From: Bacteriovoracaceae bacterium
GTDB taxonomy: Bacteria; Bdellovibrionota; Bacteriovoracia; Bacteriovoracales; Bacteriovoracaceae
Direction of reading: 5' to 3'
Length of the DNA stretch: 13,467 nt
Assembly: GCA_049599895.1 (NCBI GenBank)
Contig: JBMYPC010000085.1
Coordinates: 1 to 13,467, forward strand
The position numbers were made by a program, and so were the translations under genes. Positions 1 through 13,467 of the stretch are shown here, piece by piece; the first letter of the stretch is position 1; the number at the start of each line of letters is the position of its first letter. The notes beneath the pieces are model-generated. The model was not told where the DNA came from. It ran no database searches and saw only the letters and a list, made by a program, of their open reading frames with translations.

Positions 1-14
1 TTTGAGGAGGGGAA

Positions 15-3000
15 GTGGCAAATCCGTTACGCTTTATTACCGCGGCCAGCTTGTTCGATGGCCATGATGCTTCAATTAATATTATGAGGAGGCTGCTCCA
101 ATCAAAGGGAGCGGAGGTTATTCACCTTGGTCACAATCGTTCCGCTAAGGAAGTTGTGGATGCCTGTCTTCATGAAGACGCCCACGCTATTGCCGTGAGC
201 TCCTATCAAGGCGGACATAATGAATATTTTAAATATATTCGAGAGCTTCTTGATGAAGCCGGTGCAAAAGATGTCCGTATTTTTGGTGGTGGTGGGGGAG
301 TTATCACTCCTAAAGAAATCGATGAGCTTCATAAGGCGGGGATAACAAAAATCTATTCCCCTCAAGATGGGATGACTCTTGGGCTTGTGGGAATTATTGA
401 TGACATGATTGAAAGGGCGAAGCATTCGACCCTAGATACTATTGATCATTCTAAGCTCAAGTTTGATTCTTTAACAGATTCACAAATTGCTAAAACCATT
501 ACTCATATCGAAGAAAAAGGTGAATTACCTGAAGGGACTCTTAAAGAAAAAGAAATACCTGTTCTTGGGATTACCGGAACAGGTGGTGCTGGAAAAAGTT
601 CTTTAATTGATGAACTTCTTTTAAGGTTTGCTCACTATGCAAATGATGTGAGAGTTGCACTTGTTTCAGTTGATCCGACGAAAAAGAAAACTCAAGGGGC
701 ACTTTTAGGAGATCGAATTCGTCTGGGTGCTGCAAGCTATCCCAATTTTTATATTCGCTCACTTGCCACAAGAAACTCAGGAACGGAGCTGTCTCCCCAT
801 ATTGAAAAAGTTGTAAGCTTTTTAAAATCCCAAGACTTTAAGTTAATTATTGTAGAAACTTCTGGAATTGGACAGGCTTCGGATGCCATTACTAAAGTCG
901 CTGATAAGTGTCTCTATGTGATGACTCCTGAATATGGAGCTCAGACGCAACTTGAGAAAATTGAGATGCTTGAGTCCGCTGATTTTATTGCTCTTAATAA
1001 GTTTGAAAAGCCAAGAAGTGAAGACTCTCTTCGTGATATCAGAAAGCAGTATCGAAGAAACCATGGACTCTTTCACGAAAAAGAAGATCATGAACTTCCT
1101 GTTTATGGAACAATGGCCTCAAAGTTTAATGATCCTGGTGTGAATGCACTTTTTAAAGATCTTGTAAGTTCTCTTGAAATTAAAGCAAGCATTCCTGACG
1201 ATTTAAAATGTTCAAAACAAAATCAAGAGAAGTTTCCACTCATCGCGCCTGAAAGAAGTCTTTATTTAAGAGAAATTGCTGGAGCCGTTCGAAGTTATAA
1301 TAAAGAAACAGAACAAACTTTTGATCTTTTAAAAGATTACGAGTCCTTGGTTCAAGTTGAAAAACTTCTTAAAGATAAAAGTGAAGTCGAAGAATTAAAA
1401 AAGAAGGTGGAAAAGGAAATTGGATCGGAGGTTTTCCGGTCACTTGAAACCTTACAAAAAACCATCAAAGAATATAATGATGGGCAATTCACTTATAAAG
1501 TTCGAGATAAAGAGATTAAAGTTGAAACAAAATATGAGTCTTTGTCAGGAACTCAAATCCTAAGAGCCGGAGTTCCTCGAACAAAGAACCTTTCTTCGCT
1601 TTACCGTTTTATGAGAAGAGAAAATATTCCAGGCTTTTTTCCATACGCCTCAGGGATTTTCCCATTTAAAAGAACGGATGAAGAACCAAAAAGAATGTTC
1701 GCTGGTGAAGGTGGACCTAAAAGAACCAATGAAAGGTTTCATTTTCTTTCAAAAAATGATCCTGCAAAAAGGCTTTCAACGGCTTTTGATAGTGTGACTC
1801 TCTATGGAGAGGATCCTGACAAACGTCCCGATATTTTTGGGAAAATTGGTGAAGCAGGAGTGAGCATCGCCACTCTTGAAGACATGAAAGATCTTTATTC
1901 TGGCTTTGATCTGAGTTCTCCTAATACTTCTGTTTCCATGACAATTAATGGACCTGCTCCAATCATTCTCGCTCTTTTTATGAACACGGCAATTTCTCAA
2001 CAACTTGAAGGTGATGATTACCTCGACGATGAAAAACGTATTGAAGTGATGAGAAAAATTCGAGGAACAGTTCAAGCGGATATTCTTAAAGAAGACCAAG
2101 CGCAAAATACTTGTATCTTCTCGCTTGAATTTTCCTTAAAGATGATGGGAGATGTTCAAGAGTATTTCTGCAAAAATGCGATTCGAAACTATTATACTGT
2201 TTCGATTTCGGGATACCATATTGCCGAAGCTGGAGCGAACCCAATTTCTCAGGTTGCTTTTACGATGGCGAATGGCTTTACTTATGTTGAGTACTATAGA
2301 AGTCGTGGACTTGATGTAGATGATTTTTGCCAGAACTTTTCATTCTTTTTTAGTAATGGTCTTGATCCTGAGTATGCGGTGATTGGTCGCGTCGCTAGAA
2401 AAATTTGGGCTGTGGCCGTTCGTGATCTTTATGGCGCAAAAGAAAAAGCTCAGAAGTTTAAATATCATATTCAAACATCAGGAAGATCTCTTCATGCTCA
2501 GGAGATGTCTTTCAATGACATTCGAACTACTCTTCAGGCCTTCCTCGCTTTAAGTGATAATTGTAACTCTCTTCATACCAATGCTTATGACGAAGCGATT
2601 ACGACTCCGACAAAAGAAAGTGTAAGAAGGGCGATGGCAATTCAAATGATTATCAATAGAGAGTTTGGGCTTAATAAGACCGATAATCCTCTACAGGGAA
2701 GTTTTATTATTGATGAACTGACGGATCTTGTTGAAGAAGCCATTCTCTCAGAGTTCGAAAGAATCTCCGATCGTGGTGGCGTTCTCGGCGCAATGGAGAG
2801 TATGTACCAAAGAGGAAAGATTCAAGAAGAGTCGCTTTATTATGAAAGCAAAAAAGACTCGGGCGAACTTCCGATCATCGGTGTGAATACTTATATCTCA
2901 GATACTGTAGATGAAGATCTTAACCGCGAGATTGAACTTTCAAGATGTACAGATGAAGAGAAAATGGATCAAATCAATCGTCTGAATAGTTTTAAAGAGA

Positions 3001-3164
3001 GCAATATTAATAAATCTGAGGAAGCTTTAAGAAGACTTACTGAAGTTGTGATTAATGATGGCAATATTTTTGAGGAACTTTTAAGTACTACGAACTATTG
3101 CTCCCTTGGTGAGATCACAAATTGTCTCTATAAAGTCGGTGGAAGATATCGAAGGAATATGTAA
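15..3164 (+). CDS. icmF: Fused isobutyryl-CoA mutase (B12-binding domain + MeaB-type GTPase + mutase TIM barrel)
   Basis: N-terminal B12-binding FDGHDASINIMRR. P-loop GITGTGGAGKSS, LLGDRIR, ETSGIGQ and NKFE form the GTPase motifs. The mutase domain has RMFAGEG, RLSTAFDSVTLYG, ISGYHIAEAGA, HIQTSGRSL and SLHTNAYDE. GTG start with Shine-Dalgarno (SD) GAGGAGG at 4-10. Confidence 0.96.
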   Translation: MANPLRFITAASLFDGHDASINIMRRLLQSKGAEVIHLGHNRSAKEVVDACLHEDAHAIAVSSYQGGHNEYFKYIRELLDEAGAKDVRIFGGGGGVITPKEIDELHKAGITKIYSPQDGMTLGLVGIIDDMIERAKHSTLDTIDHSKLKFDSLTDSQIAKTITHIEEKGELPEGTLKEKEIPVLGITGTGGAGKSSLIDELLLRFAHYANDVRVALVSVDPTKKKTQGALLGDRIRLGAASYPNFYIRSLATRNSGTELSPHIEKVVSFLKSQDFKLIIVETSGIGQASDAITKVADKCLYVMTPEYGAQTQLEKIEMLESADFIALNKFEKPRSEDSLRDIRKQYRRNHGLFHEKEDHELPVYGTMASKFNDPGVNALFKDLVSSLEIKASIPDDLKCSKQNQEKFPLIAPERSLYLREIAGAVRSYNKETEQTFDLLKDYESLVQVEKLLKDKSEVEELKKKVEKEIGSEVFRSLETLQKTIKEYNDGQFTYKVRDKEIKVETKYESLSGTQILRAGVPRTKNLSSLYRFMRRENIPGFFPYASGIFPFKRTDEEPKRMFAGEGGPKRTNERFHFLSKNDPAKRLSTAFDSVTLYGEDPDKRPDIFGKIGEAGVSIATLEDMKDLYSGFDLSSPNTSVSMTINGPAPIILALFMNTAISQQLEGDDYLDDEKRIEVMRKIRGTVQADILKEDQAQNTCIFSLEFSLKMMGDVQEYFCKNAIRNYYTVSISGYHIAEAGANPISQVAFTMANGFTYVEYYRSRGLDVDDFCQNFSFFFSNGLDPEYAVIGRVARKIWAVAVRDLYGAKEKAQKFKYHIQTSGRSLHAQEMSFNDIRTTLQAFLALSDNCNSLHTNAYDEAITTPTKESVRRAMAIQMIINREFGLNKTDNPLQGSFIIDELTDLVEEAILSEFERISDRGGVLGAMESMYQRGKIQEESLYYESKKDSGELPIIGVNTYISDTVDEDLNREIELSRCTDEEKMDQINRLNSFKESNINKSEEALRRLTEVVINDGNIFEELLSTTNYCSLGEITNCLYKVGGRYRRNM

Positions 3165-3737
3165 TTGAAAAAATCGAAGATTTATACAAAAACGGGAGAT
3201 CAGGGGCAGACTTCAATCCTCTCAGGTGATCGCGTTTTAAAAAGTGATGAAAGAATTGAGCTCTACGGAGAACTTGATGAGCTCAACTCTTTTATCGGTC
3301 ATGCTCTTTCTTTTGAAGAGGGGAAGTTTCAGAACATCAAAACCACTCTTATCTCAGTTCAAAATGATATTTTTCAAATGGGATCTCGTGCAGCTTGTCC
3401 TATCTGTCAAAGAGAGAAATATGGCCTTACAGAGATCTCAAAAGAGAAAGTTGAGGCACTTGAAACTGAGATAGACAGGCTTGATCATGAATTAGATGAG
3501 CTTAAAAACTTTATCCTCCCTGGGGGAAACTCTTTTGCTTCTTCACTTCATATCTGCCGAACAGTCACCAGGAGAGTTGAAAGACGGGCGATCAAACTTC
3601 ATTCTGAACTCGATGATTACTTTGGTGACGTCGAACTAAAATTTTTAAACCGATTGTCTGATTATCTTTTTGTGGCTTCAAGATTTGTAAATGCTAAGCT
3701 TGGAATTCAAGAGACAATTTGGAAAAGTAATAGCTAA
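3165..3737 (+). CDS. PduO-type cob(I)alamin adenosyltransferase
   Basis: KIYTKTGDQGQT, RIELYGELDELNS, FILPGG, HICRTVTRRVER and LNRLSDYLFVASR are the PduO/MMAB signature motifs. The TTG start directly follows the icmF TAA. Confidence 0.95.
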   Translation: MKKSKIYTKTGDQGQTSILSGDRVLKSDERIELYGELDELNSFIGHALSFEEGKFQNIKTTLISVQNDIFQMGSRAACPICQREKYGLTEISKEKVEALETEIDRLDHELDELKNFILPGGNSFASSLHICRTVTRRVERRAIKLHSELDDYFGDVELKFLNRLSDYLFVASRFVNAKLGIQETIWKSNS

Positions 3738-4303
3738 CCATTTTTCTTAAAAAGATTTACGACTTTAGTAAGAACATCCTTACCGTCAGTTCCTTCATCT
3801 TTTTTTGGCTTTTTGATTTTCTTAGAAGGCTTTAGTTTTTTTCTTGCTTCAAGAGAGACAAGCTTTGTTTCTTTGGTTGCTTCATCATCTCCGTCGCTAC
3901 TTAAATCTTTAACAACGGGAGACTTTTGAGGGGCATCAACTTTAAGATCAAGAAACTTTGTTTTAGCAAGTTGCGACTTTCTTGTAAGAAGAGCTCTTTC
4001 ACTTCTGGTGAGGCTTTTCTTGTCAATTTCAATTTTAATTGTTCCAAGAGTGAGAACTTCTCCAATATAGAGATGAGAAGAAACAACCTTGATTCCATTA
4101 ACGTAAGTTCCATTGGTTGAATTCAAGTCAGTAATAACCACTTTGCCGTCGTCATCAAGGTAGATCTCACAATGCTTTGAACTAAGAAGGCCATCAGAGA
4201 ATTTCACGTTACAACTTGAGGCGCGCCCAAGCACAAGTGGCTTAGAATTCAGCCTGACGTTGTGACATTTGCCGTTAACGTAAATGTTAATTGATATCGA
4301 CAT
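3734..4303 (-). CDS. FHA domain protein with Lys-rich low-complexity C-terminal tail
   Basis: FHA motifs LGR, SSKH and DLNSTNGTYVNG. ATG at 4303 with upstream AAGGAAG is preferred over the TTG at 4321. Confidence 0.9.
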   Translation of the reverse strand: MSISINIYVNGKCHNVRLNSKPLVLGRASSCNVKFSDGLLSSKHCEIYLDDDGKVVITDLNSTNGTYVNGIKVVSSHLYIGEVLTLGTIKIEIDKKSLTRSERALLTRKSQLAKTKFLDLKVDAPQKSPVVKDLSSDGDDEATKETKLVSLEARKKLKPSKKIKKPKKDEGTDGKDVLTKVVNLFKKNG

Positions 4304-4427
4304 ATCTTCCTTTGAGGGCAAGCTTGCGCAATTTTATCTTTATCGATCATTTAAACTATCGGTTTAAGTTACTAGAAACATTAGGACTAAGTTGTGTCTA
4401 ACATATTGAGATTACTAGACAAAAGTT

Positions 4428-4436
4428 TGCTATACT
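4428..4436 (+). promoter_or_regulatory. Putative extended -10 promoter (TGcTATACT) for the iscA-ygfZ pair
   Basis: TGn-TATACT matches the sigma70 extended -10 element. TTGAGA at 4406-4411 lies 19 bp upstream. Confidence 0.4.
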
Positions 4437-4575
4437 AAAAACGAGTAGTTTTTAGGCGCCGCAGGCAACTAGCGCGCGTCAGCAAGCGGATGTCAAAGCG
4501 CAAGATTATAGGGATTTACAGAGTTTTTGTGTTATATGCTAAACTCAAGTTTTGGAATTCATCGAGGAGACCTAA

Positions 4576-4914
4576 GTGGCTGAAAATACAATTGTGGAAA
4601 TTACAGACAAGGCCATTGAGCAAATTAAGCATATTTTTAGTGGCCAAGAGAACACTGAGGCGCGAGGGCTTCGTTTGAAAGTCGTCGGTGGTGGTTGTTC
4701 TGGGCTAACTTATAATATGGACTTTGATGAACAAAAAGAAAAAGACAATGTCTTTGAGTTTGGTGAAGTTAAGGTTCTTATTGATCTTAAGTCATCGATC
4801 TATTTAAAAGGGGTGACTCTCGATTATAAAGACGGCCTTAATGGAAAAGGTTTTGTTTTTGTAAATCCCAACGCGACCAACACCTGCGGTTGTGGTGAAT
4901 CTTTTAGCGTCTAG
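4576..4914 (+). CDS. iscA: HesB/IscA/ErpA family A-type Fe-S cluster carrier
   Basis: GGGCSG and C-terminal NPNATNTCGCGESFSV give the three conserved Cys. GTG start with SD GAGGAG. The paralog (iscA/erpA/sufA) cannot be resolved by eye. Confidence 0.93.
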   Translation: MAENTIVEITDKAIEQIKHIFSGQENTEARGLRLKVVGGGCSGLTYNMDFDEQKEKDNVFEFGEVKVLIDLKSSIYLKGVTLDYKDGLNGKGFVFVNPNATNTCGCGESFSV

Positions 4915-4916
4915 CT

Positions 4917-6434
4917 ATGCTCGATCAAGAAATAGAACGAATTCGATACTCCGGTGGATCTTTTCATTTGAAAGACTATGCAGTTGTGGAGCTATCAGGA
5001 TCTGATGCGAGCTCTTTTTTGCACAATTTTTCTACCAGTAATGTGGAAGGCCTTAAAGAATTTGAGTTCAACCTCAGCGCTCGTTTGAATATCCGGGCCC
5101 AGGTACTTTTTTATTTTTATATCCTGAAAAGATCAAAAGAGCTTTTTCATCTCGTGATTCCAAAGTCGTTTTTAAAAGAGTTATCTTCAGAGTTTGAGAA
5201 GTTTATTATTGCTGAAGATGTTGAGTACGAGACAAAGCCTTTGGATGTCATTGTTCACATCTCAAAAGCTCTCGAAGAGAATATTTTTAAAGGCCGTTTC
5301 TTAGAAGAAGAAGCGGGCCTTGAGCTTATTGATGGAGCTGAGTCTCAAAGCTACGATGACTTAGAAATTTTAAATGAGCTTTCATTTTTTTCAGGAGTTT
5401 GCCTAAATCAAGAGAACTTTCAAGCAGAGCTTGTGAATAATACAAGACTTAATGAAGTTGCTGTTGATTATCAAAAAGGTTGCTTTCTTGGACAAGAGAC
5501 TGCAGCTAAGATTCATGTGAACCGAGGAGCGGCAAAGTTCCCGGCTTTATTAGAAATTGGTGGTGATTTTCAAAAGAAAGAAATTACTCTTTCGGGAAAT
5601 AAAAATATTACGATCGAAGAGATAAAAACCTGGAAGGGAAAAACTCTTCTTAAGACAACGCTTTCAAGAGACTTTCTTCTTGATGATTTAGAAGTTGATA
5701 TTGGTGATGGAGTCCAAGCGAAAGTAAAACGTTTTCCTTATTTTAAGGATGGGCGCTTAACTGAAAAAGCCCAGGTGGTATTTGAAAAAGCAGTCGCTTT
5801 TTTTAGCCAGGGAGAGTATGAAAAAGCTCTTGATCATTTCAAAAAAGCCATCGAGTTCGATCCTACTTTTGCAGATGCCTATGAATCTTTAGGAGTTCTC
5901 TATGGACGTCTTGAACAATACGAAAAGGCAATTGAACAAATGGATAAACTTTTAAAAGTCGATCCCGATTCAGTTATGGCCCATACCAATAAGTCTCTTT
6001 ATTTTATGAAACTTGGAAAAATTGAAGAAGCAGAAGAAGAAAAGTCTAATGCTACTGTGAAGTCATTCGCTCAGTTTGGAAAAGAAGCGAAAGAGAAAAA
6101 AGAAAAAGAAGCGCAAAAAGAAGCGCTAGAAAGAGAACGAGAAACCAAGAAGAAAATGTTTCACGAAGTTCTTGAAATTGATCCCGATGATGAGTTTGCT
6201 AATACAAGCTTAGGTGGGATTTATCTTGAAGAGCAAGAGTTTGATAAGGCCAAGACATACCTTGAGAAATCATATGAAATTGATCCCAAAAACCCACAAA
6301 TGCTTTTATCTCTTTGTAAGCTAAGGAAAAATGAAGGTGATTCGAGTTGGGTTGAGCTTAAAAATCTTGGTATCGACATCGCTTTAAAGAAAGGTCGTCA
6401 AAAAATCGCTCTTGAACTTCAGAAAATCTTATAA
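4917..6434 (+). CDS. ygfZ: YgfZ/Iba57 (GcvT-fold folate-binding Fe-S maturation factor) fused to C-terminal TPR repeats
   Basis: VVELSGSDASSFL opens the GcvT fold. The signature KGCFLGQE lies at 5475-5498. From about aa 283 there are TPR repeats (ALDHFKKAIEFDPTFADAYESLG, VLEIDPDDEFANTSLG, SYEIDPKNPQ). The gene starts 2 nt after the iscA stop. Confidence 0.88.
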   Translation: MLDQEIERIRYSGGSFHLKDYAVVELSGSDASSFLHNFSTSNVEGLKEFEFNLSARLNIRAQVLFYFYILKRSKELFHLVIPKSFLKELSSEFEKFIIAEDVEYETKPLDVIVHISKALEENIFKGRFLEEEAGLELIDGAESQSYDDLEILNELSFFSGVCLNQENFQAELVNNTRLNEVAVDYQKGCFLGQETAAKIHVNRGAAKFPALLEIGGDFQKKEITLSGNKNITIEEIKTWKGKTLLKTTLSRDFLLDDLEVDIGDGVQAKVKRFPYFKDGRLTEKAQVVFEKAVAFFSQGEYEKALDHFKKAIEFDPTFADAYESLGVLYGRLEQYEKAIEQMDKLLKVDPDSVMAHTNKSLYFMKLGKIEEAEEEKSNATVKSFAQFGKEAKEKKEKEAQKEALERERETKKKMFHEVLEIDPDDEFANTSLGGIYLEEQEFDKAKTYLEKSYEIDPKNPQMLLSLCKLRKNEGDSSWVELKNLGIDIALKKGRQKIALELQKIL

Positions 6435-6557
6435 TTCTTACATGATTCTCCTTTAATTTCATAACCTTAGAGAAAGTTTTACTCAGTCCATTCACGATTG
6501 AGTGTCGATTCGTTATTTACTTCTTTAAAGAAGTACTCGTTCATTCACGGGGGGAAT

Positions 6558-8666
6558 GTGAGTCTAAGACTAGCGCCAGCAATTTTAATCATTTTTACTT
6601 TCTTTCTTAGTCTAGAGAGTCAGGCAAGGCCAAATTGTTTAAGTGCGATCGTAAAGTCCGTTGCTTCTCACAAAAGAAACTCTCTTCCCTCAAAACTTGA
6701 AAAACAACTTATAAAATCAAAAGACTTCAACCTCACTGAAACCCGTGAAATTAACGATGTCATTGATTCCCTTTATTTCATTGATTACTACCATCAAATG
6801 AATCTGATCTATCAGGCTAGATATGCTGAAAATACCTTGGGTCAGCTTGATATTCCCTTTCTTTACGATGCTAGCACTGAGAAGACTTCAGCTTTTAAAA
6901 ATTATAAGCGAGCACTCAAATTTCTTCGTGAGGAGAAACCGAAGTTTAACTGGGAAGGTTTAACAGAAACTCATAGGGCCCTTATGCGAGGTAGGATTGA
7001 AGAACTTCCTGCTGGAGCTTTAGGAAAGGCGAGAAATTATACAAACTTAGGTTCAGAAACAGACCTTACAGATGCTCAGATCAAGACACTTAAAGATAAC
7101 CCCTATCTTACATTGGTAGAAGAAACAAAAACCTGGGATATCTATTATCCATCAGTCGATTATTCAGATGACTCTGTATTTGAACTTATAAAGTCCGGGC
7201 ACCCTGATCTTTATAAAAGAATTCACGACTATCGAAACGGAAACGGTGGTTCGGTTAAATCATTAACGGTAGAGCTTACGACGGCAATGACTGAAGATCT
7301 GATGGCCTGGTTTGTAAGGGAGAAAGATCAGATTGGAGCAATTAAGACTGTCGCTGATCTAAGAAAGTTTGTTAAGATTGTTGCTAAGTTTCAAAGAGAC
7401 CTCATCTCAATTCATCCGTTTGGTGATGGTAATGGTCGAACAGTGAGAATGTTTGCTCTGTATATGCCTTTTATGCAAGCGGGGATTCCAAGACCTCGTA
7501 TCACGAACCCTAACAATGATTACATTGTTCCTTTAAAAGAATGGGAAGAACAGATCCTTGAAGGGATTCAATCATCTTACCAACTTTATAATGATCTCTT
7601 TGATCGAATTCAAGACGGTCGCTCTCTTAGATTTAGTCCCTATCTCTATTTGCCTCAGATTCCTGAGTATGCACAAGTCGCAGTCAAAGGAAAAAGAGGA
7701 GCAAAACCAGTTCGAAAGGCCATTAATCCTCAGCAGGTTGCAACTTATTTTGATTATCTAGGTAATCATCCAGGCTATTCTGACTGGCATTACACCTTTG
7801 AAGCAGCTCCCTTTAAGGCTTTAGATGAGCTTGAACAAATGTATCTTGAGTTTACGAAAAGAACTCAAGGTGTTTATCACCATAAAAAAAGAGGAAAACT
7901 TGATATTTCAGTTAACCTCCTGGGGCCTGATTTTAGAGCCGACTTCTTTAACGCGAAATATTTAGATCCTGAAAGTTACAAGGCCAAAATGGACAAATGG
8001 TATATGAATCAAACCGTTTGGCGTGGACTTCCTTACCAAGAAGAAGAAGTGACGGAGAAAGAGATCCTTGAACTCTTTACGGGATTCTCAAATAATTTCA
8101 TTGCGATGAATATTGGTTACGCTACTACTCAAAAGCAATTTGTAAAAAAGATTAATAAAGAGTTTGATCGCTTTAATGAAATGTTGGTGAGCGGTGAGTA
8201 TATCGATTACGTTCGAGGTCATGTCAATGGTACCGAGAAGTATGACTATAGCTTTGGTTATTCCACTTCAAGAGAGAGAAGCTCTGCAAAGGGTTATGCC
8301 ATGGGGCTTTTGGTGATCGGTGATTATAAGACTTATCGAAAGCGCCAAGATCAATTGAAATCACGAGTCTTAATGGGAGTTCAACGATGTCATAAAGACA
8401 TTGATGTTTCGATCTTGAGGCAGGTGGATGATCGTTTCCGCTATAAGTATCCAAGACAAAGAGAAGTTCTAGGAATTGGTGCCGCTGATCCTGATTCGAT
8501 GAGAATTGTTCAAACTTTGGATGATGATGGAGAAGTGATCTTTTCTTATCTTCGAAACCCCGAGAAGCCTTATGAAGTCTTAAAAATCAAAGGGCAACAT
8601 GACCCAGATTCTAAAAGGCTACCTGCTAAGTCTCGAATTCTAGAAGTCTTTGACCTACGAAAATAA
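6558..8666 (+). CDS. Secreted Fic-domain protein with putative C-terminal R-S-E class ADP-ribosyltransferase domain
   Basis: Likely GTG start at 6558 after a GGGGGGA SD-like run, giving the signal peptide MSLRLAPAILIIFTFFLSLESQA. Canonical Fic motif HPFGDGNGRTVR at 7413-7448. ART-like motifs WRG (8019-8027), STS (8262-8270) and QRE (8457-8465). The Fic call is strong; the ART call is moderate. Confidence 0.8.
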   Translation: MSLRLAPAILIIFTFFLSLESQARPNCLSAIVKSVASHKRNSLPSKLEKQLIKSKDFNLTETREINDVIDSLYFIDYYHQMNLIYQARYAENTLGQLDIPFLYDASTEKTSAFKNYKRALKFLREEKPKFNWEGLTETHRALMRGRIEELPAGALGKARNYTNLGSETDLTDAQIKTLKDNPYLTLVEETKTWDIYYPSVDYSDDSVFELIKSGHPDLYKRIHDYRNGNGGSVKSLTVELTTAMTEDLMAWFVREKDQIGAIKTVADLRKFVKIVAKFQRDLISIHPFGDGNGRTVRMFALYMPFMQAGIPRPRITNPNNDYIVPLKEWEEQILEGIQSSYQLYNDLFDRIQDGRSLRFSPYLYLPQIPEYAQVAVKGKRGAKPVRKAINPQQVATYFDYLGNHPGYSDWHYTFEAAPFKALDELEQMYLEFTKRTQGVYHHKKRGKLDISVNLLGPDFRADFFNAKYLDPESYKAKMDKWYMNQTVWRGLPYQEEEVTEKEILELFTGFSNNFIAMNIGYATTQKQFVKKINKEFDRFNEMLVSGEYIDYVRGHVNGTEKYDYSFGYSTSRERSSAKGYAMGLLVIGDYKTYRKRQDQLKSRVLMGVQRCHKDIDVSILRQVDDRFRYKYPRQREVLGIGAADPDSMRIVQTLDDDGEVIFSYLRNPEKPYEVLKIKGQHDPDSKRLPAKSRILEVFDLRK

Positions 8667-8668
8667 GC

Positions 8669-10048
8669 TTATCTTTTAAACTTCTTAAAACTTTCAATTG
8701 TTTTAAGAGTTTGTTCGATCATTTTTTTTCGGTATTTGACTTTTTCTGATTTAAACTCATTTTCAACTTTTTCAAAATAGTCTTTTGATTTTTGAACTTC
8801 TTCATCAAACAGCTTTTGAACTTCAAGACCTTCATCTGTCACTTTGTCCATTTGATAAGCTCTCGCAAGTTCCTCTTTTGTATTAGTAAGATAAAGGTAT
8901 TCTTCATAGACTCGATGTTTAATTTTGAAAACTTGATCATCATCAAAACTGTGAGGATGGCTTTCGATGTATTTTCCTAAATCGGTAAAAAGCTTGAGGG
9001 CCCAATAGAATGTACAGTAGGCATGATAGATGCCTCTGATTGGCCTTGGAGCTCTTCTCCAAAGGCTATAGAATATTTTTTCATCATCCTCAACGATCAG
9101 CTCATCAAGGGTCAAAAACTTATTTAGAATATGGTGACCGTTTTCATGAACGAGATCATCGAGAAGGTCGACGAAGTCACGGTCAGCAAAATTAATAAAA
9201 GAAACTCCCGGGAAGTTTTGCATCGAGTAGGAGACCATATTTTTCTCTTGGAAGCTTATAAGGCTCCAAGTGTTCTCTAGAAGAAGCTGATGACAATCAG
9301 GACTTGCTTCTGACAAGACCGTGAGTGCTTCTAGGGTTTGCTTTTTGATGTCCTCAATTTGTGATTTGTCTTGAATTTTAAGAAGAAAAGGGAAGTCTTG
9401 GTTTGCTGCGGATGACTTACCAACTCTTTGATTAATTTCTTTTTCGTCTGGGTCAAAAATTGAAAGACCTTCATCATTATGCTCAAAGCTTTTAAGCTCC
9501 AAAATAGAGTCTTTCGTTTCAAAAGCTTGGTTTCTAATAAAAAATATATTTTGAGTGTCACCGAGATCATTTGATGTCACATAGCTGAGTGGCTTCAGAA
9601 GTTCATAATCTTGGTTATGAATATGGAGGTAATAAAAAGTGATTAAGTGCCCTTGAAAGAGTGAAAGAAGATCAGAGGCCACTTCAAATGGGTTTTCATC
9701 CTGTGAGCGGTCACAGAAAATTTTATAAAACTCTGTTGCCTCAAAGAAATCATACAGCTCTTCAATGAGTTCTTCAGTGTTAATGCTCTCTTCTTGAAAA
9801 TCAAACTCAGAAGCTTCTTTTAGCACTTCCGCAAGATAAAAGACTCTTTCCCAGAACTCAACAAAATAAAAATTGATAGGAGAATAGTCTTTGAGAAGAT
9901 TAAAATTAAACTTTTGGATTTCTTCAATAAAGTTCGTGTCGAGAACTTCTGTAAGTTCTTCTGTTTCAGACTGTAGTTCTTCTAGGCTTTCACTGTAGCA
10001 GCTTTTGAGCTCTTCTGAGGCTTGAGATATATTTTCAATGAGTTTCAT
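8669..10048 (-). CDS. HExxH-motif putative peptide-modification enzyme (aKG-HExxH-type beta-hydroxylase family)
   Basis: VSYSMQNFPGVSFI, DDLVHENGHH (HENGH at 9148-9134) and FYSLWRRAPRPIRGIYHAY match the family pattern HExxH...(S/P)WRxxxRPxxGxxHA. The N-terminal ~200 aa are acidic and unrecognised. Confidence 0.82.
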   Translation of the reverse strand: MKLIENISQASEELKSCYSESLEELQSETEELTEVLDTNFIEEIQKFNFNLLKDYSPINFYFVEFWERVFYLAEVLKEASEFDFQEESINTEELIEELYDFFEATEFYKIFCDRSQDENPFEVASDLLSLFQGHLITFYYLHIHNQDYELLKPLSYVTSNDLGDTQNIFFIRNQAFETKDSILELKSFEHNDEGLSIFDPDEKEINQRVGKSSAANQDFPFLLKIQDKSQIEDIKKQTLEALTVLSEASPDCHQLLLENTWSLISFQEKNMVSYSMQNFPGVSFINFADRDFVDLLDDLVHENGHHILNKFLTLDELIVEDDEKIFYSLWRRAPRPIRGIYHAYCTFYWALKLFTDLGKYIESHPHSFDDDQVFKIKHRVYEEYLYLTNTKEELARAYQMDKVTDEGLEVQKLFDEEVQKSKDYFEKVENEFKSEKVKYRKKMIEQTLKTIESFKKFKR

Positions 10049-13000
10049 TGGGAGTTTCTAACTTAAATTCTTGTGAACGCCAATCAATAAATTTAAATGG
10101 CCTAAGTTCTGGCTCGTGAAGTGGTGTTTTAGCATCTGTGGCTCGACAAAACTCTTGATCTCTGTTCTTGACTCGATGGTAATTACTCCAAGCCGCTTCT
10201 CTCAGATATTGGGTGATTTTTCTCTTCTCAGTGATCATTTGCAGATAACGAAATGATCCTCTTTTTGTTCTTTTAAGGTCTGGGGTTGAGCGATCAACAG
10301 AAATAAGCCCAAACTTAGGACAATAGCCATCTGACCATTCAAAGTTATCAGTGATACTCCAATAGAGATAACCATCGATTTTGAGGCCTTCTTTCATAAG
10401 TTGGGAAAGAACCAGAAGGTGTTCAATAATATAAGACGGCCTGATGTTATCGCTTGAGTCTGCAAGACCATTTTCTGTAATTAAAAATGAAAGGTTTCGA
10501 GTGTCAGATTCAAGTCGGTTCACTCTTTCTTTGTTGTAGCGTTTATCAAGAAGCTTTAAGAGATAATAAAGACCGTCGGGATAAACCCCTCTTCCTGCGT
10601 CTGAATAGAGAACGTTATCAGCAAAGACGAGATCAAACTCACTTAAAACTTCAACTCCATAATAATTGATTCCAATGTAATCAAGCTTGGAGATAAAAAA
10701 GTCCAGTGGTCTTAAGTTAAACCAAAGATGAGCATTCTCAACAGTTTTCTTATCTGCTGTTTCGTTTTGTGGATGATAGAAGTCTACTCTATGAGCAATA
10801 CCAACTTTCTTATTAGGCGTTTTCGTTTTGACATAGTCGTAGAGCTCTCCATGAGCGAGGGCCATTCTATTGAGTTGTTGGTAAAAAACACCATAATTCC
10901 CGTCGCTCACATATTGAGCGATGTCAGTGATATTTTGAGTTTTTTGTTCGAGAGGTGATGGCCAAATCACATTTGTGTAGGTGAAAAGGACATAGATATG
11001 AGGCTCGTTAAAGAATGTGTAGCTGTCGACTAAATCATTAAGATGATCAATCACAAGTTTTCCAAACTTTACGAAATGCAGTTGAACCTCTGAGTTATTC
11101 CAAGAACCAAGATCGAGACTCCATTGTGGTTCAGCATGGTGAAAGAGAGTGATAACAGGTTTCATCCCTCGCTTTTTAACTTTTTCGAGAATCTTTCTGT
11201 AATGCTTTAAAGCTTCAAGGTTTGGCTTGTTTTCTCTTGCGCTTTTTAAGGTTGGAAAAATTCGGGCCCAATCAATACTCATTCTAAAAATTGAGCTATG
11301 AGAAGAGTTACCATTTAATTCTTTGGCCGCATCAAGTTCTCGTTCTGGTTCTGTCCAAAACCGAAGTTTGTCTTTTGGGACTGAGACATTGTGAAAGGCG
11401 GGGATCTTATTGTCGTCGGCAAAAAGATTCCATGAATCACTGGCGACAGGTTGATCTTCAACTTGTTGTGCGGCATTGGCGACACCAAAAGAGAAGTCGT
11501 CAGGGAATTCAGCAAGAGTTGTTGATAATGGTATTTTTTCTTTTTTCTTCTCGCTCCCAGAGGGGTCTTCCCCCTTTTTAAGGGACTTCGAAACAAGTCT
11601 CAAGACTTGTAGTTCATAGATGAAATAGTAGGAGTCATAAAGAAGTTCATAGAGTTCTTCACGTTCAGCCTTCGTTCTTTTAAGAAAAACACCCATCTGC
11701 GTTTCATAATAGTATTGGAAAAAAGAGTCCATCACTCCAAGTTCTTTTTGTGTTGATCGCTTTAAATCGAAAAGAAGACCATAGGGGAGATCTTTTCCTT
11801 CATTGGCTTGCGCGATAGCAGGGGCGATGAGAGTGTTAAAAAAGCCTTCTAATCCATGAACAGCATAAAGAGCAGCACCACCAGCACCGCCATCATCCAT
11901 TTGAGCGTAGCTCTCATTGATTGTGATATCCCGTGCAGTTCTCCCATCGGGAAGAACCTCTTCTTTGAGGGCCTTAAATTTTCCTGTTGCTTCAGGAAAT
12001 TTAAAGTTCTGTAAGCGATATTCTTTTGTGAATTCACCTTTTCCTAGAGCCTTTAGCTTTTTAAGCTTTTCTGAGACATCAGTTGATATGGCTTCTAATT
12101 CTGCGACTCTTTCTTCTATCTTCTGACTTTCGCTTTTGTCTTCATCTGTGATTTTGAGTTCATCCCTGGATTTTTCTCCACCGACTTTATAGCGATGAGG
12201 ATAATCAACTTGATCACCTTGCATCGCTTTTTGGGCCATATTCATAAGCGAGGTTGGATTCATGTCCATTGACTTAATCATGCTGCCAATATTCTGAACA
12301 AACCTCGTTGTTCCGGCTTTAAATGACTGTTGGACCATAAGACAAAGATTATGCTTTCCATCTTTTAACAGAAGTTCTTTATCTTCGAAGGAAATAAGAC
12401 CGACTAATCTTTCCGGGATTTTATAAAATGAATGATCCGAGAGAATCATATTGTGAGAAGTGGTTTCAAGAGATCTCAGTTCTTCAAGGCTTAGAATGTA
12501 GCCTTTTTCAGAAAGTTTCGCTTCGATTGTTGCTTCTGACATCATGGGGTTAATGAATTCATGACGAAAGGCTGGTTGAAAGCAATTATTAATATTACGA
12601 AAGAAAACAAGTGATTCATTGATCATGGCCCCAAGACCTTCTTCGCTTGAAGAAAGTTGCTTAAAGAGTGCTTGAAGTTCTCCACTTGAGCTGGCTTCAT
12701 TGATATTGTTCGCAAGAATGCCAATACCCTTAAGTGCTGTGGTCATCCCTGGAAGATTTTGATTTATGACCTGAAGGCCTTCTTCAATATTCTCCGCATG
12801 ACTTGCAATCCCTTCCATTGGAACAATCATCCTACCAATCGTAGAAGAGACATCCATCAGAAGAATCAGAGTTTGGTCGAGTTGGCTTTTGATGTCTGTA
12901 ATTGGTTTTACAATTTCTTGAAGAAGAAGAGAGGTTTGGCTCAAGGAGAGAACGGTTTCTTTTAATAGTTCTTGGGTCTCTTTGAGATCTTTTTTAATTT

Positions 13001-13157
13001 CATCGAGCTGGTTATTCGTGGTTTCAATATTGTTGTTGGCGCGATCAATCCTGCCGGAGTTGTCATCAATTTTCTTGGCCATGTCACAAGCGGATAAGAC
13101 GACGATTAAAGCGATAAGCTTTAAGAAATAAAGAGATTTTGAGACGTAGTTGGGCAT
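10035..13157 (-). CDS. Lipoprotein with N-terminal coiled coil, unknown middle region and C-terminal glycoside hydrolase family 1 (SFR2-like) domain
   Basis: SD AGGTGA. Lipobox VLSAC (Cys24). Heptad-rich region from aa 25. GH1 domain from about aa 551 (FSFGVA, FRMSIDWARIFP, TLFH) with acid/base TFFNEP (E718), nucleophile ITENG (E895), and WSITDNFEWSDGY. Confidence 0.9.
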   Translation of the reverse strand: MPNYVSKSLYFLKLIALIVVLSACDMAKKIDDNSGRIDRANNNIETTNNQLDEIKKDLKETQELLKETVLSLSQTSLLLQEIVKPITDIKSQLDQTLILLMDVSSTIGRMIVPMEGIASHAENIEEGLQVINQNLPGMTTALKGIGILANNINEASSSGELQALFKQLSSSEEGLGAMINESLVFFRNINNCFQPAFRHEFINPMMSEATIEAKLSEKGYILSLEELRSLETTSHNMILSDHSFYKIPERLVGLISFEDKELLLKDGKHNLCLMVQQSFKAGTTRFVQNIGSMIKSMDMNPTSLMNMAQKAMQGDQVDYPHRYKVGGEKSRDELKITDEDKSESQKIEERVAELEAISTDVSEKLKKLKALGKGEFTKEYRLQNFKFPEATGKFKALKEEVLPDGRTARDITINESYAQMDDGGAGGAALYAVHGLEGFFNTLIAPAIAQANEGKDLPYGLLFDLKRSTQKELGVMDSFFQYYYETQMGVFLKRTKAEREELYELLYDSYYFIYELQVLRLVSKSLKKGEDPSGSEKKKEKIPLSTTLAEFPDDFSFGVANAAQQVEDQPVASDSWNLFADDNKIPAFHNVSVPKDKLRFWTEPERELDAAKELNGNSSHSSIFRMSIDWARIFPTLKSARENKPNLEALKHYRKILEKVKKRGMKPVITLFHHAEPQWSLDLGSWNNSEVQLHFVKFGKLVIDHLNDLVDSYTFFNEPHIYVLFTYTNVIWPSPLEQKTQNITDIAQYVSDGNYGVFYQQLNRMALAHGELYDYVKTKTPNKKVGIAHRVDFYHPQNETADKKTVENAHLWFNLRPLDFFISKLDYIGINYYGVEVLSEFDLVFADNVLYSDAGRGVYPDGLYYLLKLLDKRYNKERVNRLESDTRNLSFLITENGLADSSDNIRPSYIIEHLLVLSQLMKEGLKIDGYLYWSITDNFEWSDGYCPKFGLISVDRSTPDLKRTKRGSFRYLQMITEKRKITQYLREAAWSNYHRVKNRDQEFCRATDAKTPLHEPELRPFKFIDWRSQEFKLETPNETH

Positions 13158-13205
13158 AAATCACCTAAAAGTTTGTTCTATAAAAAGCGCTTAAAAATAT
13201 CATTG

Positions 13206-13225
13206 ATTCACATTTTTTTGTGAAT
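13206..13225. promoter_or_regulatory. Operator-like inverted repeat ATTCACA-N6-TGTGAAT upstream of the GH1 lipoprotein gene
   Basis: Perfect 7-bp arms around a 6-T spacer, 49-68 bp upstream of the start codon at 13157. Confidence 0.4.
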
Positions 13226-13324
13226 GATGGGAAATATTTCAAGTTGGGGGGAGTTGGGGGTGTTTAGATTTTGGGCAGGGTGAAAGAAGTATAGGGGGGA
13301 AGGTTTTTTATTCGATGTTTTGGG

Positions 13325-13467
13325 GTTTTATCTGATTCCTGAACGGAATCATCTGTCCGCTTGGCGCGCAAAAAATGTCCACTGGGGCTTTTGTTTACTT
13401 TCGTTTTTTGGAGTTTTATCTGATTCCTGAACGGAATCATCTGTCCGCTTGGCGCGCAAAAAATGTC
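13325..13467. repeat. Direct repeat of at least 55 bp, two identical copies (13325-13379 and 13413-13467), period 88 bp, containing a hairpin
   Basis: GTTTTATCTGATTCCTGAACGGAATCATCTGTCCGCTTGGCGCGCAAAAAATGTC occurs twice. Internal stem TGATTCC-TGAAC-GGAATCA. The second copy runs into the window end. Confidence 0.92.

Follow-up and report, generated by a model that had tools for sequence, protein, structure and literature searches.

A Fic protein with a predicted ADP-ribosyltransferase domain and signal peptide in a Bacteriovoracaceae genome, likely directed at prey

The gene and its product

The stretch of DNA analysed here (the window) comprises 13,467 nucleotides of a Bacteriovoracaceae bacterium (assembly GCA_049599895.1, contig JBMYPC010000085.1, positions 1 to 13,467). 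It carries a gene whose product joins a Fic domain to a predicted NAD-using mono-ADP-ribosyltransferase (ART), behind a predicted Sec signal peptide. Our results suggest that this protein is likely a prey-directed toxin delivered at prey entry, a reading to which we give a probability of about 0.55. It draws on what was observed directly, namely conserved motifs, a stable fusion and no immunity gene common to the loci, and on a predicted fold and predicted export.

The open reading frame (ORF) 6498/6558-8666 lies on the forward strand and encodes 722 residues from a TTG at 6498, or 702 from the GTG at 6558, which is the start adopted in our protein collection (P0002). Residue numbers follow the 6498 ORF and equal the P0002 number plus 20. 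Conservation of the C-terminal motifs was counted over 108 domains, which are the homologues spanning the motifs among 130 proteins with any match, the query and a few near-duplicates included. The features are:

6558..8666, + strand: gene for the 702-residue Fic and ADP-ribosyltransferase-like protein; homologues are colinear over 77-98% of its length
6558..6626, + strand: predicted Sec signal peptide of 23 residues, with putative cleavage after S-Q-A, from the sequence and our hydrophobicity rule
6876..7667, + strand: Fic domain with a family-specific insertion (NPY...YP), from Pfam PF02661 and profile matches to AnkX and FICD; extent taken from the alignment
7413..7448, + strand: Fic motif HPFGDGNGRTVR (H306-R317), from an alignment of 71 homologues
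7968..8663, + strand: predicted ADP-ribosyltransferase-fold domain of the R-S-E (cholera/pertussis-like) clade, from the model, fold searches, profile comparison and the Atlas
8022..8024, + strand: R509 (WRG, first strand), kept in 103 of 108 domains; model strand 12-23; aligns with the F/Y-R-G of scabin-like domains
8220..8222, + strand: H575, kept in 102 of 108; aligns with the His of the scabin-like consensus
8262..8270, + strand: S589-T-S591 motif, kept in 104, 98 and 99 of 108; S589 lies within model strand 97-101
8457..8465, + strand: Q654-x-E656 catalytic motif; Q in 94 (E in 9) and E656 in 105 of 108; E656 starts model strand 166-170
6549..6554, + strand: G6 run resembling a ribosome-binding site, 3 nucleotides upstream of the GTG at 6558; the run is seen, its function is putative
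6690..6869, + strand: conserved N-terminal segment with an F-x-D-Y motif, from homologue alignments
7713..7964, + strand: conserved linker region between the Fic and ART domains, from the homologue alignment

An earlier note, made from the letters of the sequence, had pointed to HPFGDGNGRTVR with H306, WRG with R509, H575, GYSTS at S589-S591 and RQREV with Q654 and E656, and all of these motifs are present where it placed them. It had also expected that standard annotation would name only a Fic family protein, and Pfam indeed labels the protein Fic alone. Likewise in line with that note, which reported no small antitoxin or immunity gene beside it, no small ORF of at least 60 residues flanks the gene in the window.

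The C-terminal domain

Retention of the ART motifs in most of the 108 domains places them beyond chance. Note that the query shares only 20-43% identity with the rows of the C-terminal alignment. The predicted model of the domain reached a predicted local distance difference test score (pLDDT) of 97 and a predicted template modelling score (pTM) of 0.92. The top rows of the fold search were all cholera/pertussis-like ADP-ribosyltransferases, the Atlas agreed, and a profile comparison aligned the motifs of the domain with those of scabin-like domains. The aromatic-Arg feature is supplied by W508-R509 in the first strand, and the fold match together with the strand positions suggests that R, S and E meet in space. 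The fold proposed from the letters was thus recovered in the prediction, and R509, S589 and E656 are kept. From the model, the domain almost certainly has an ADP-ribosyltransferase fold, and it is very probably an active ADP-ribosyltransferase or NADase.

The nearest solved fold was the antibacterial Rhs toxin TreX, followed by pertussis-like toxins, with cholera toxin and pierisin ranking lower. The first description, a cholera-toxin/pierisin-like ART, therefore stands as regards the predicted R-S-E fold clade, but neither namesake is the nearest solved fold, which is TreX. In the structural features tested the domain resembles the R-S-E ADP-ribosylating toxins, and it lies outside the AB5, Rhs/Tre and Pfam scabin-like families. 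No match over the cut-off to the Pfam families Scabin-like (PF22596), Enterotoxin_a or Pertussis_S1 was obtained in the protein, in the genome (for PF22596) or in 33 of the domains. The lack of a sequence-level family match, and insertions that lie close to the active site, would also suit a domain that has the fold but no catalytic activity and serves the Fic enzyme as a binding module. This is very unlikely, since R, S and E are among the best-conserved positions and persist in members whose Fic motif has decayed.

The Fic domain

The Fic domain scored above the Pfam cut-off (PF02661, 34.2 against 24 bits), and the query contains the Fic-family motif H-P-F-x-(D/E)-G-N-G-R-x-x-R. Among the 71 aligned homologues, the His is present in 68, the Asn in 69 and the first and the second Arg in 67 each; in the wider set, 81 of the 82 members that have the His also have the second Arg, the residue that binds the gamma-phosphate of a nucleoside triphosphate (NTP) in Fic enzymes. 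The inhibitory motif of Fic proteins, (S/T)xxxE(G/N), is absent from P0002, and no small antitoxin ORF flanks the gene in the window or in the loci compared. The Fic domain is very likely active.

Of the name Fic AMPylase, as first given, the Fic part is confirmed by Pfam; AMP transfer is less certain, as the nearest solved Fic protein is the phosphocholine transferase AnkX (profile match, E 7e-11). However, AnkX leads FICD by only 9 bits, and the alignment begins past its CMP-binding residues. Since, in addition, the second Arg is kept, an NTP is the best guess for the nucleotide donor, and AMP is somewhat favoured as the group that the domain moves.

Signal peptide and export

Signal peptides were called with our own hydrophobicity rule, run with controls, rather than with SignalP. 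The rule was positive for the query and for 86 of 103 long family members. Of 60 generic Fic ORFs it called 4, and of 1182 long ORFs in the genome 407. One family member, P0007, is named 'putative exported protein' at its source. Among the proteins negative by the rule are P0046, P0056, P0071, P0075, P0081, P0087, P0091, P0092 and P0094, which are divergent and of which most have both sites intact; these members would need another export route or another form of protection.

Distribution and architecture of the family

A search with the C-terminal domain gave 118 representatives at 50% clustering, the query included. Within the phylum, 51 of 401 genomes, belonging to 26 of 204 genera, contain the domain; these comprise 27 of 100 genomes in the family to which the window belongs and 12 of 53 in a second family (f9), among others. 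It was not found in viral contigs, nor convincingly in two other groups, represented by 251 and 250 genomes. The named relatives are Halobacteriovorax proteins with 30% identity, and in the tree the Halobacteriovorax domains cluster with a locus of the family that the window comes from, which suggests a Bacteriovorax-type host within the Bdellovibrionota.

The fusion of the two halves is stable. All 46 full-length matches to the Fic half (E<1e-70), compared by eye, sit in frames that also hold the ART domain. Among 96 homologues of at least 590 residues, both sites are intact in 77, the ART site only in 13, the Fic site only in 3 (one of them truncated) and neither in 3; this set, from which one near-duplicate was omitted, was gathered via the ART domain and so leans toward it. 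Most family proteins measure 700-800 residues and some 1391-2349, the latter with a long unannotated N-terminal extension. This extension spans 700-1500 residues in P0025, P0027, P0028, P0031, P0039, P0042, P0045, P0050 and others. No Pfam family scored above the cut-off within it, and it is a candidate delivery or targeting part.

Such a fusion could also reflect one coupled, SidE-like reaction, in which the ART would add ADP-ribose, the Fic His would split the pyrophosphate, and AMP or phosphoribose would be passed to a second acceptor. The near-obligate joining of the domains speaks for this, as do the additional Fic and ART-like subfamilies within the phylum. AnkX, the nearest solved Fic, uses CDP-choline, which like ADP-ribose is a nucleoside-diphosphate-X compound (PMC4454073, PMC7228754; statements from cited papers refer throughout to the portions of them available). 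We nevertheless regard coupling as improbable: the second motif Arg, kept almost throughout the family, is missing in AnkX, the alignment stops short of the CMP-binding residues, the lead of AnkX over FICD is slight, and the 13 ART-only homologues keep the ART without a Fic motif.

The 20 neighbourhoods compared with the window include two synteny blocks (5 and 4 loci), which point to long chromosomal residence of the gene. No small partner or immunity gene was shared across lineages in these 20 neighbourhoods and the window. The gene is duplicated in tandem at L109, and it is inverted relative to its syntenic neighbours at L101 and L104. At L203 (2425-3558, genome G160) the family gene stops at 378 codons, before the Fic motif, and no ART remainder was detected in 8 kb. 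At L111 two converging paralogues (5975-7879, + strand, and 7874-10201, - strand) show complementary decay. In one the Fic motif has decayed while the ART motifs are intact; in the other the Fic motif is intact and it is the ART-like end that has decayed. P0113 and P0120 are stand-alone proteins of 359 and 244 residues, with a signal peptide and an ART domain carrying E-x-E.

A likely orthologue involved in predation

The supplement of PMC12546842 lists Bd2033 (Q6MLH7), a Fido-domain protein of Bdellovibrio bacteriovorus, with 49 peptides, in the entry-peak cluster. Its level was 6.3 before entry, 8.0 at 30-60 min and 4.9 at 5 h, a log2 change of 1.77 (PMC12546842). The gene has 2313 nucleotides, or 770 codons (PMC3627812). 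It is reported to be one of Tudor's transposon-defined predatory genes and to be up-regulated at 30 min (PMC2797640), and it is counted among the conserved hypothetical genes that B. marinus SJ also has and that are induced at 30 min (PMC3526173). We identified CBW27710.1 (773 residues) as the family member of B. marinus SJ. The Fido annotation, the size and this shared homologue together make Bd2033 a likely member of the same family. In the available portions of these publications it appears as a hypothetical or Fido-domain protein, no ART domain being noted, and the main text of PMC12546842, as far as available, leaves it unmentioned.

A 2026 review places the halt of prey transcription at 20-25 min after invasion and names mechanisms against further effectors or toxins as a matter for future study (PMC13689555). 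The entry timing of Bd2033 fits this stop. The earlier suggestion of a prey- or host-directed effector thus gained outside support from a likely orthologue, while remaining our inference; we consider prey the probable target.

Several observations weigh against a prey-directed toxin. The C-terminal domain has no sequence match in Pfam or the PDB, a smaller profile comparison gave just 16% probability, and the template modelling (TM) scores normalised by the query are about 0.4, the last because the domain bears insertions. Seventeen of the 103 long members fail the signal-peptide rule, 19 of the 103 show a lipobox-like start, and no delivery domain was identified for the protein. The domain is not universal among these organisms, and in four f9 loci (L107-L110) a conserved ORF of 126-136 residues converges on the gene. 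Bd2033 is a likely, rather than an established, member of the family. Its transcript is low and flagged as unexpressed in attack-phase and growth-phase RNA-seq, where the meaning of the columns is partly shown (PMC3627812). Finally, for empty invaded prey, the portion of PMC12546842 available names just Bd0173 and Bd0993 as entry proteins of interest with a signal peptide.

Some of these points would suit an exported or membrane-anchored enzyme with both domains active and a nutritional or internal role, either the breakdown of prey NAD and nucleotides or the modification of the predator's own envelope proteins at the growth switch. The lipobox-like starts are compatible with such a role, as is the absence of Bd2033 from the proteins of interest named, in that portion of PMC12546842, for empty invaded prey. 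The peak of Bd2033 from entry to 2 h suits early feeding as much as killing. ART-fold NADases do exist. We think this role unlikely, because the closest folds belong to toxins that modify protein or nucleic acid, Q-x-E is retained in 94 of 108 domains, and a Fic enzyme modifying the envelope of its own cell would require ATP, which the periplasm lacks.

That the protein is a toxin by which the cell defends itself against protist grazers or other eukaryotes, rather than a predation factor, appears still less probable. Pertussis toxin, LT, cholera toxin, CARDS and AnkX, all relatives of one domain or the other, target eukaryotes, and the patchy distribution would be in keeping with such a function. 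Yet no B subunit, receptor-binding domain or ankyrin domain was found in the gene or beside it, Bd2033 is induced on entry into bacterial prey, and the top fold match is antibacterial (PMC11606950).

Proposed mechanism

For the prey-directed toxin, we propose that Sec export would separate both enzymes from the predator's own cytoplasmic ATP and NAD, and that for this reason no antitoxin would be needed. For both enzymes to act, the protein must reach a compartment with NAD and ATP; we suggest that it arrives in the prey cytoplasm at entry, by a route that is conjectural. There the C-terminal domain, the more constant half, would ADP-ribosylate an essential prey target. ADP-ribosyltransferases with E-x-E modify arginine, and those with Q-x-E asparagine, cysteine or guanine. 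The target would, given the Q-x-E motif, probably not be arginine. The Fic domain would separately move a nucleotide monophosphate, likeliest AMP, to the hydroxyl of a prey protein. Separate action is favoured by the ART-only members, the stand-alone ART proteins and the L111 paralogues with their opposite losses. The expected outcome would be an early halt of prey transcription or translation. The stronger form of this proposal, in which the family is a cytoplasm-directed killing effector that halts gene expression in the prey within some 25 min via ADP-ribosylation and Fic modification, possibly coupled, is offered only tentatively. If true, it would explain in biochemical terms what the predation gene Bd2033 encodes, and the family would stand at the head of a larger group of exported Fic-ART proteins across the phylum; a coupled reaction would be new to Fic enzymes.

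Comparison with known systems

The closest solved folds, TreX and TreTu (Xenorhabdus Rhs toxins; PDB 8s2m, 8s2n, 9gco), share 18% identity with the query and are Rhs tips solved with their immunity proteins, whereas the query carries a signal peptide, is joined to a Fic partner, has about 90 additional residues and lacks a shared immunity gene. It has no Rhs Pfam match and its downstream gene is convergent and unrelated, which sets it apart from the Tre toxins of Rhs and type VI secretion systems. Pertussis toxin S1, EcPltA, LT-A and cholera toxin A1 show 9-17% identity and, unlike the query, are not fused to Fic. These belong to AB5 toxins of eukaryotes, which have B subunits; no small co-oriented ORF that could encode one was seen in the window and none is shared over 20 loci, unlinked genes lying outside the search. 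As for scabin, pierisin-1 and the scabin-like family, PF22596 fails to match the query gene.

AnkX is the best solved match to the Fic half. It has an insertion inside its Fic domain, and its CMP-binding residues lie near the N-terminus (D28, R30, Y41, R44; PMC4454073, PMC7228754). The insertion of the query is similarly placed, but AnkX is without the second motif Arg and has ankyrin repeats where the query has the ART; against the AnkX NCBIfam model the query scored 19.7, the cut-off being 1400. SidE, ExoS and IbpA are multi-enzyme effectors, injected or two-partner secreted into animal cells, and they too carry two modifying enzymes per chain, in other domain pairs. No description of a Fic and ART fusion was met in the titles and abstract openings of the literature searched, most subscription papers being outside reach. 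The family is real, and combines known effector chemistry in a domain pairing not met in the searched literature.

It contributes an ART subfamily that Pfam does not detect, and it is relevant to the annotation of these predators and to their use as living antibiotics. Moreover, since the likely orthologue Bd2033 is already a transposon-defined, entry-induced predation gene, how Bdellovibrio kills or silences its prey can now be tested with two point mutants in the laboratory model.

Further Fic-ART groups and neighbouring genes

ART-like ends occur in four more groups of long proteins of the phylum that are Fic proteins or derive from them; the ends of three groups match the family profile with 98-99.5% probability and those of one weakly. 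The first three (groups B, C and E) comprise proteins of 650-830 residues whose C-termini match the family ART profile. In group B (L206, L208, L209, L210) the Fic motif is intact and E-x-E replaces Q-x-E; in group C (L204, L205) the Fic motif is intact, and in group E (L217, L218) it is lost. The fourth (L211-L215, L219-L221) consists of eight Fic-domain proteins of 736-910 residues with a common C-terminus in which R, H, S/T and x-Y/F-E follow in ART order. The profile match of this C-terminus is weak (17% to scabin-like domains), and these proteins are possibly a second Fic-ART lineage.

In the window, the gene lies between a gene for a YgfZ-like and TPR protein and a converging HExxH-domain gene. 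The latter (8669-10048, - strand) encodes an aKG-HExxH peptide beta-hydroxylase domain above the cut-off (TIGR04267, 53.7 against 40 bits); neither a precursor peptide nor a radical SAM gene was seen in the window. The opposite flank (15-6434) is a housekeeping block with a cobalamin adenosyltransferase, an FHA protein and the YgfZ-like and TPR fusion, together with what we take to be a fused cobalamin-dependent mutase/GTPase and an IscA-like protein. Beyond the hydroxylase-domain gene, 10035-13157 (- strand) encodes a protein of 1040 residues that starts like a lipoprotein and contains a coiled-coil region as well as a GH1 glycosidase domain, an unusual exported GH1.
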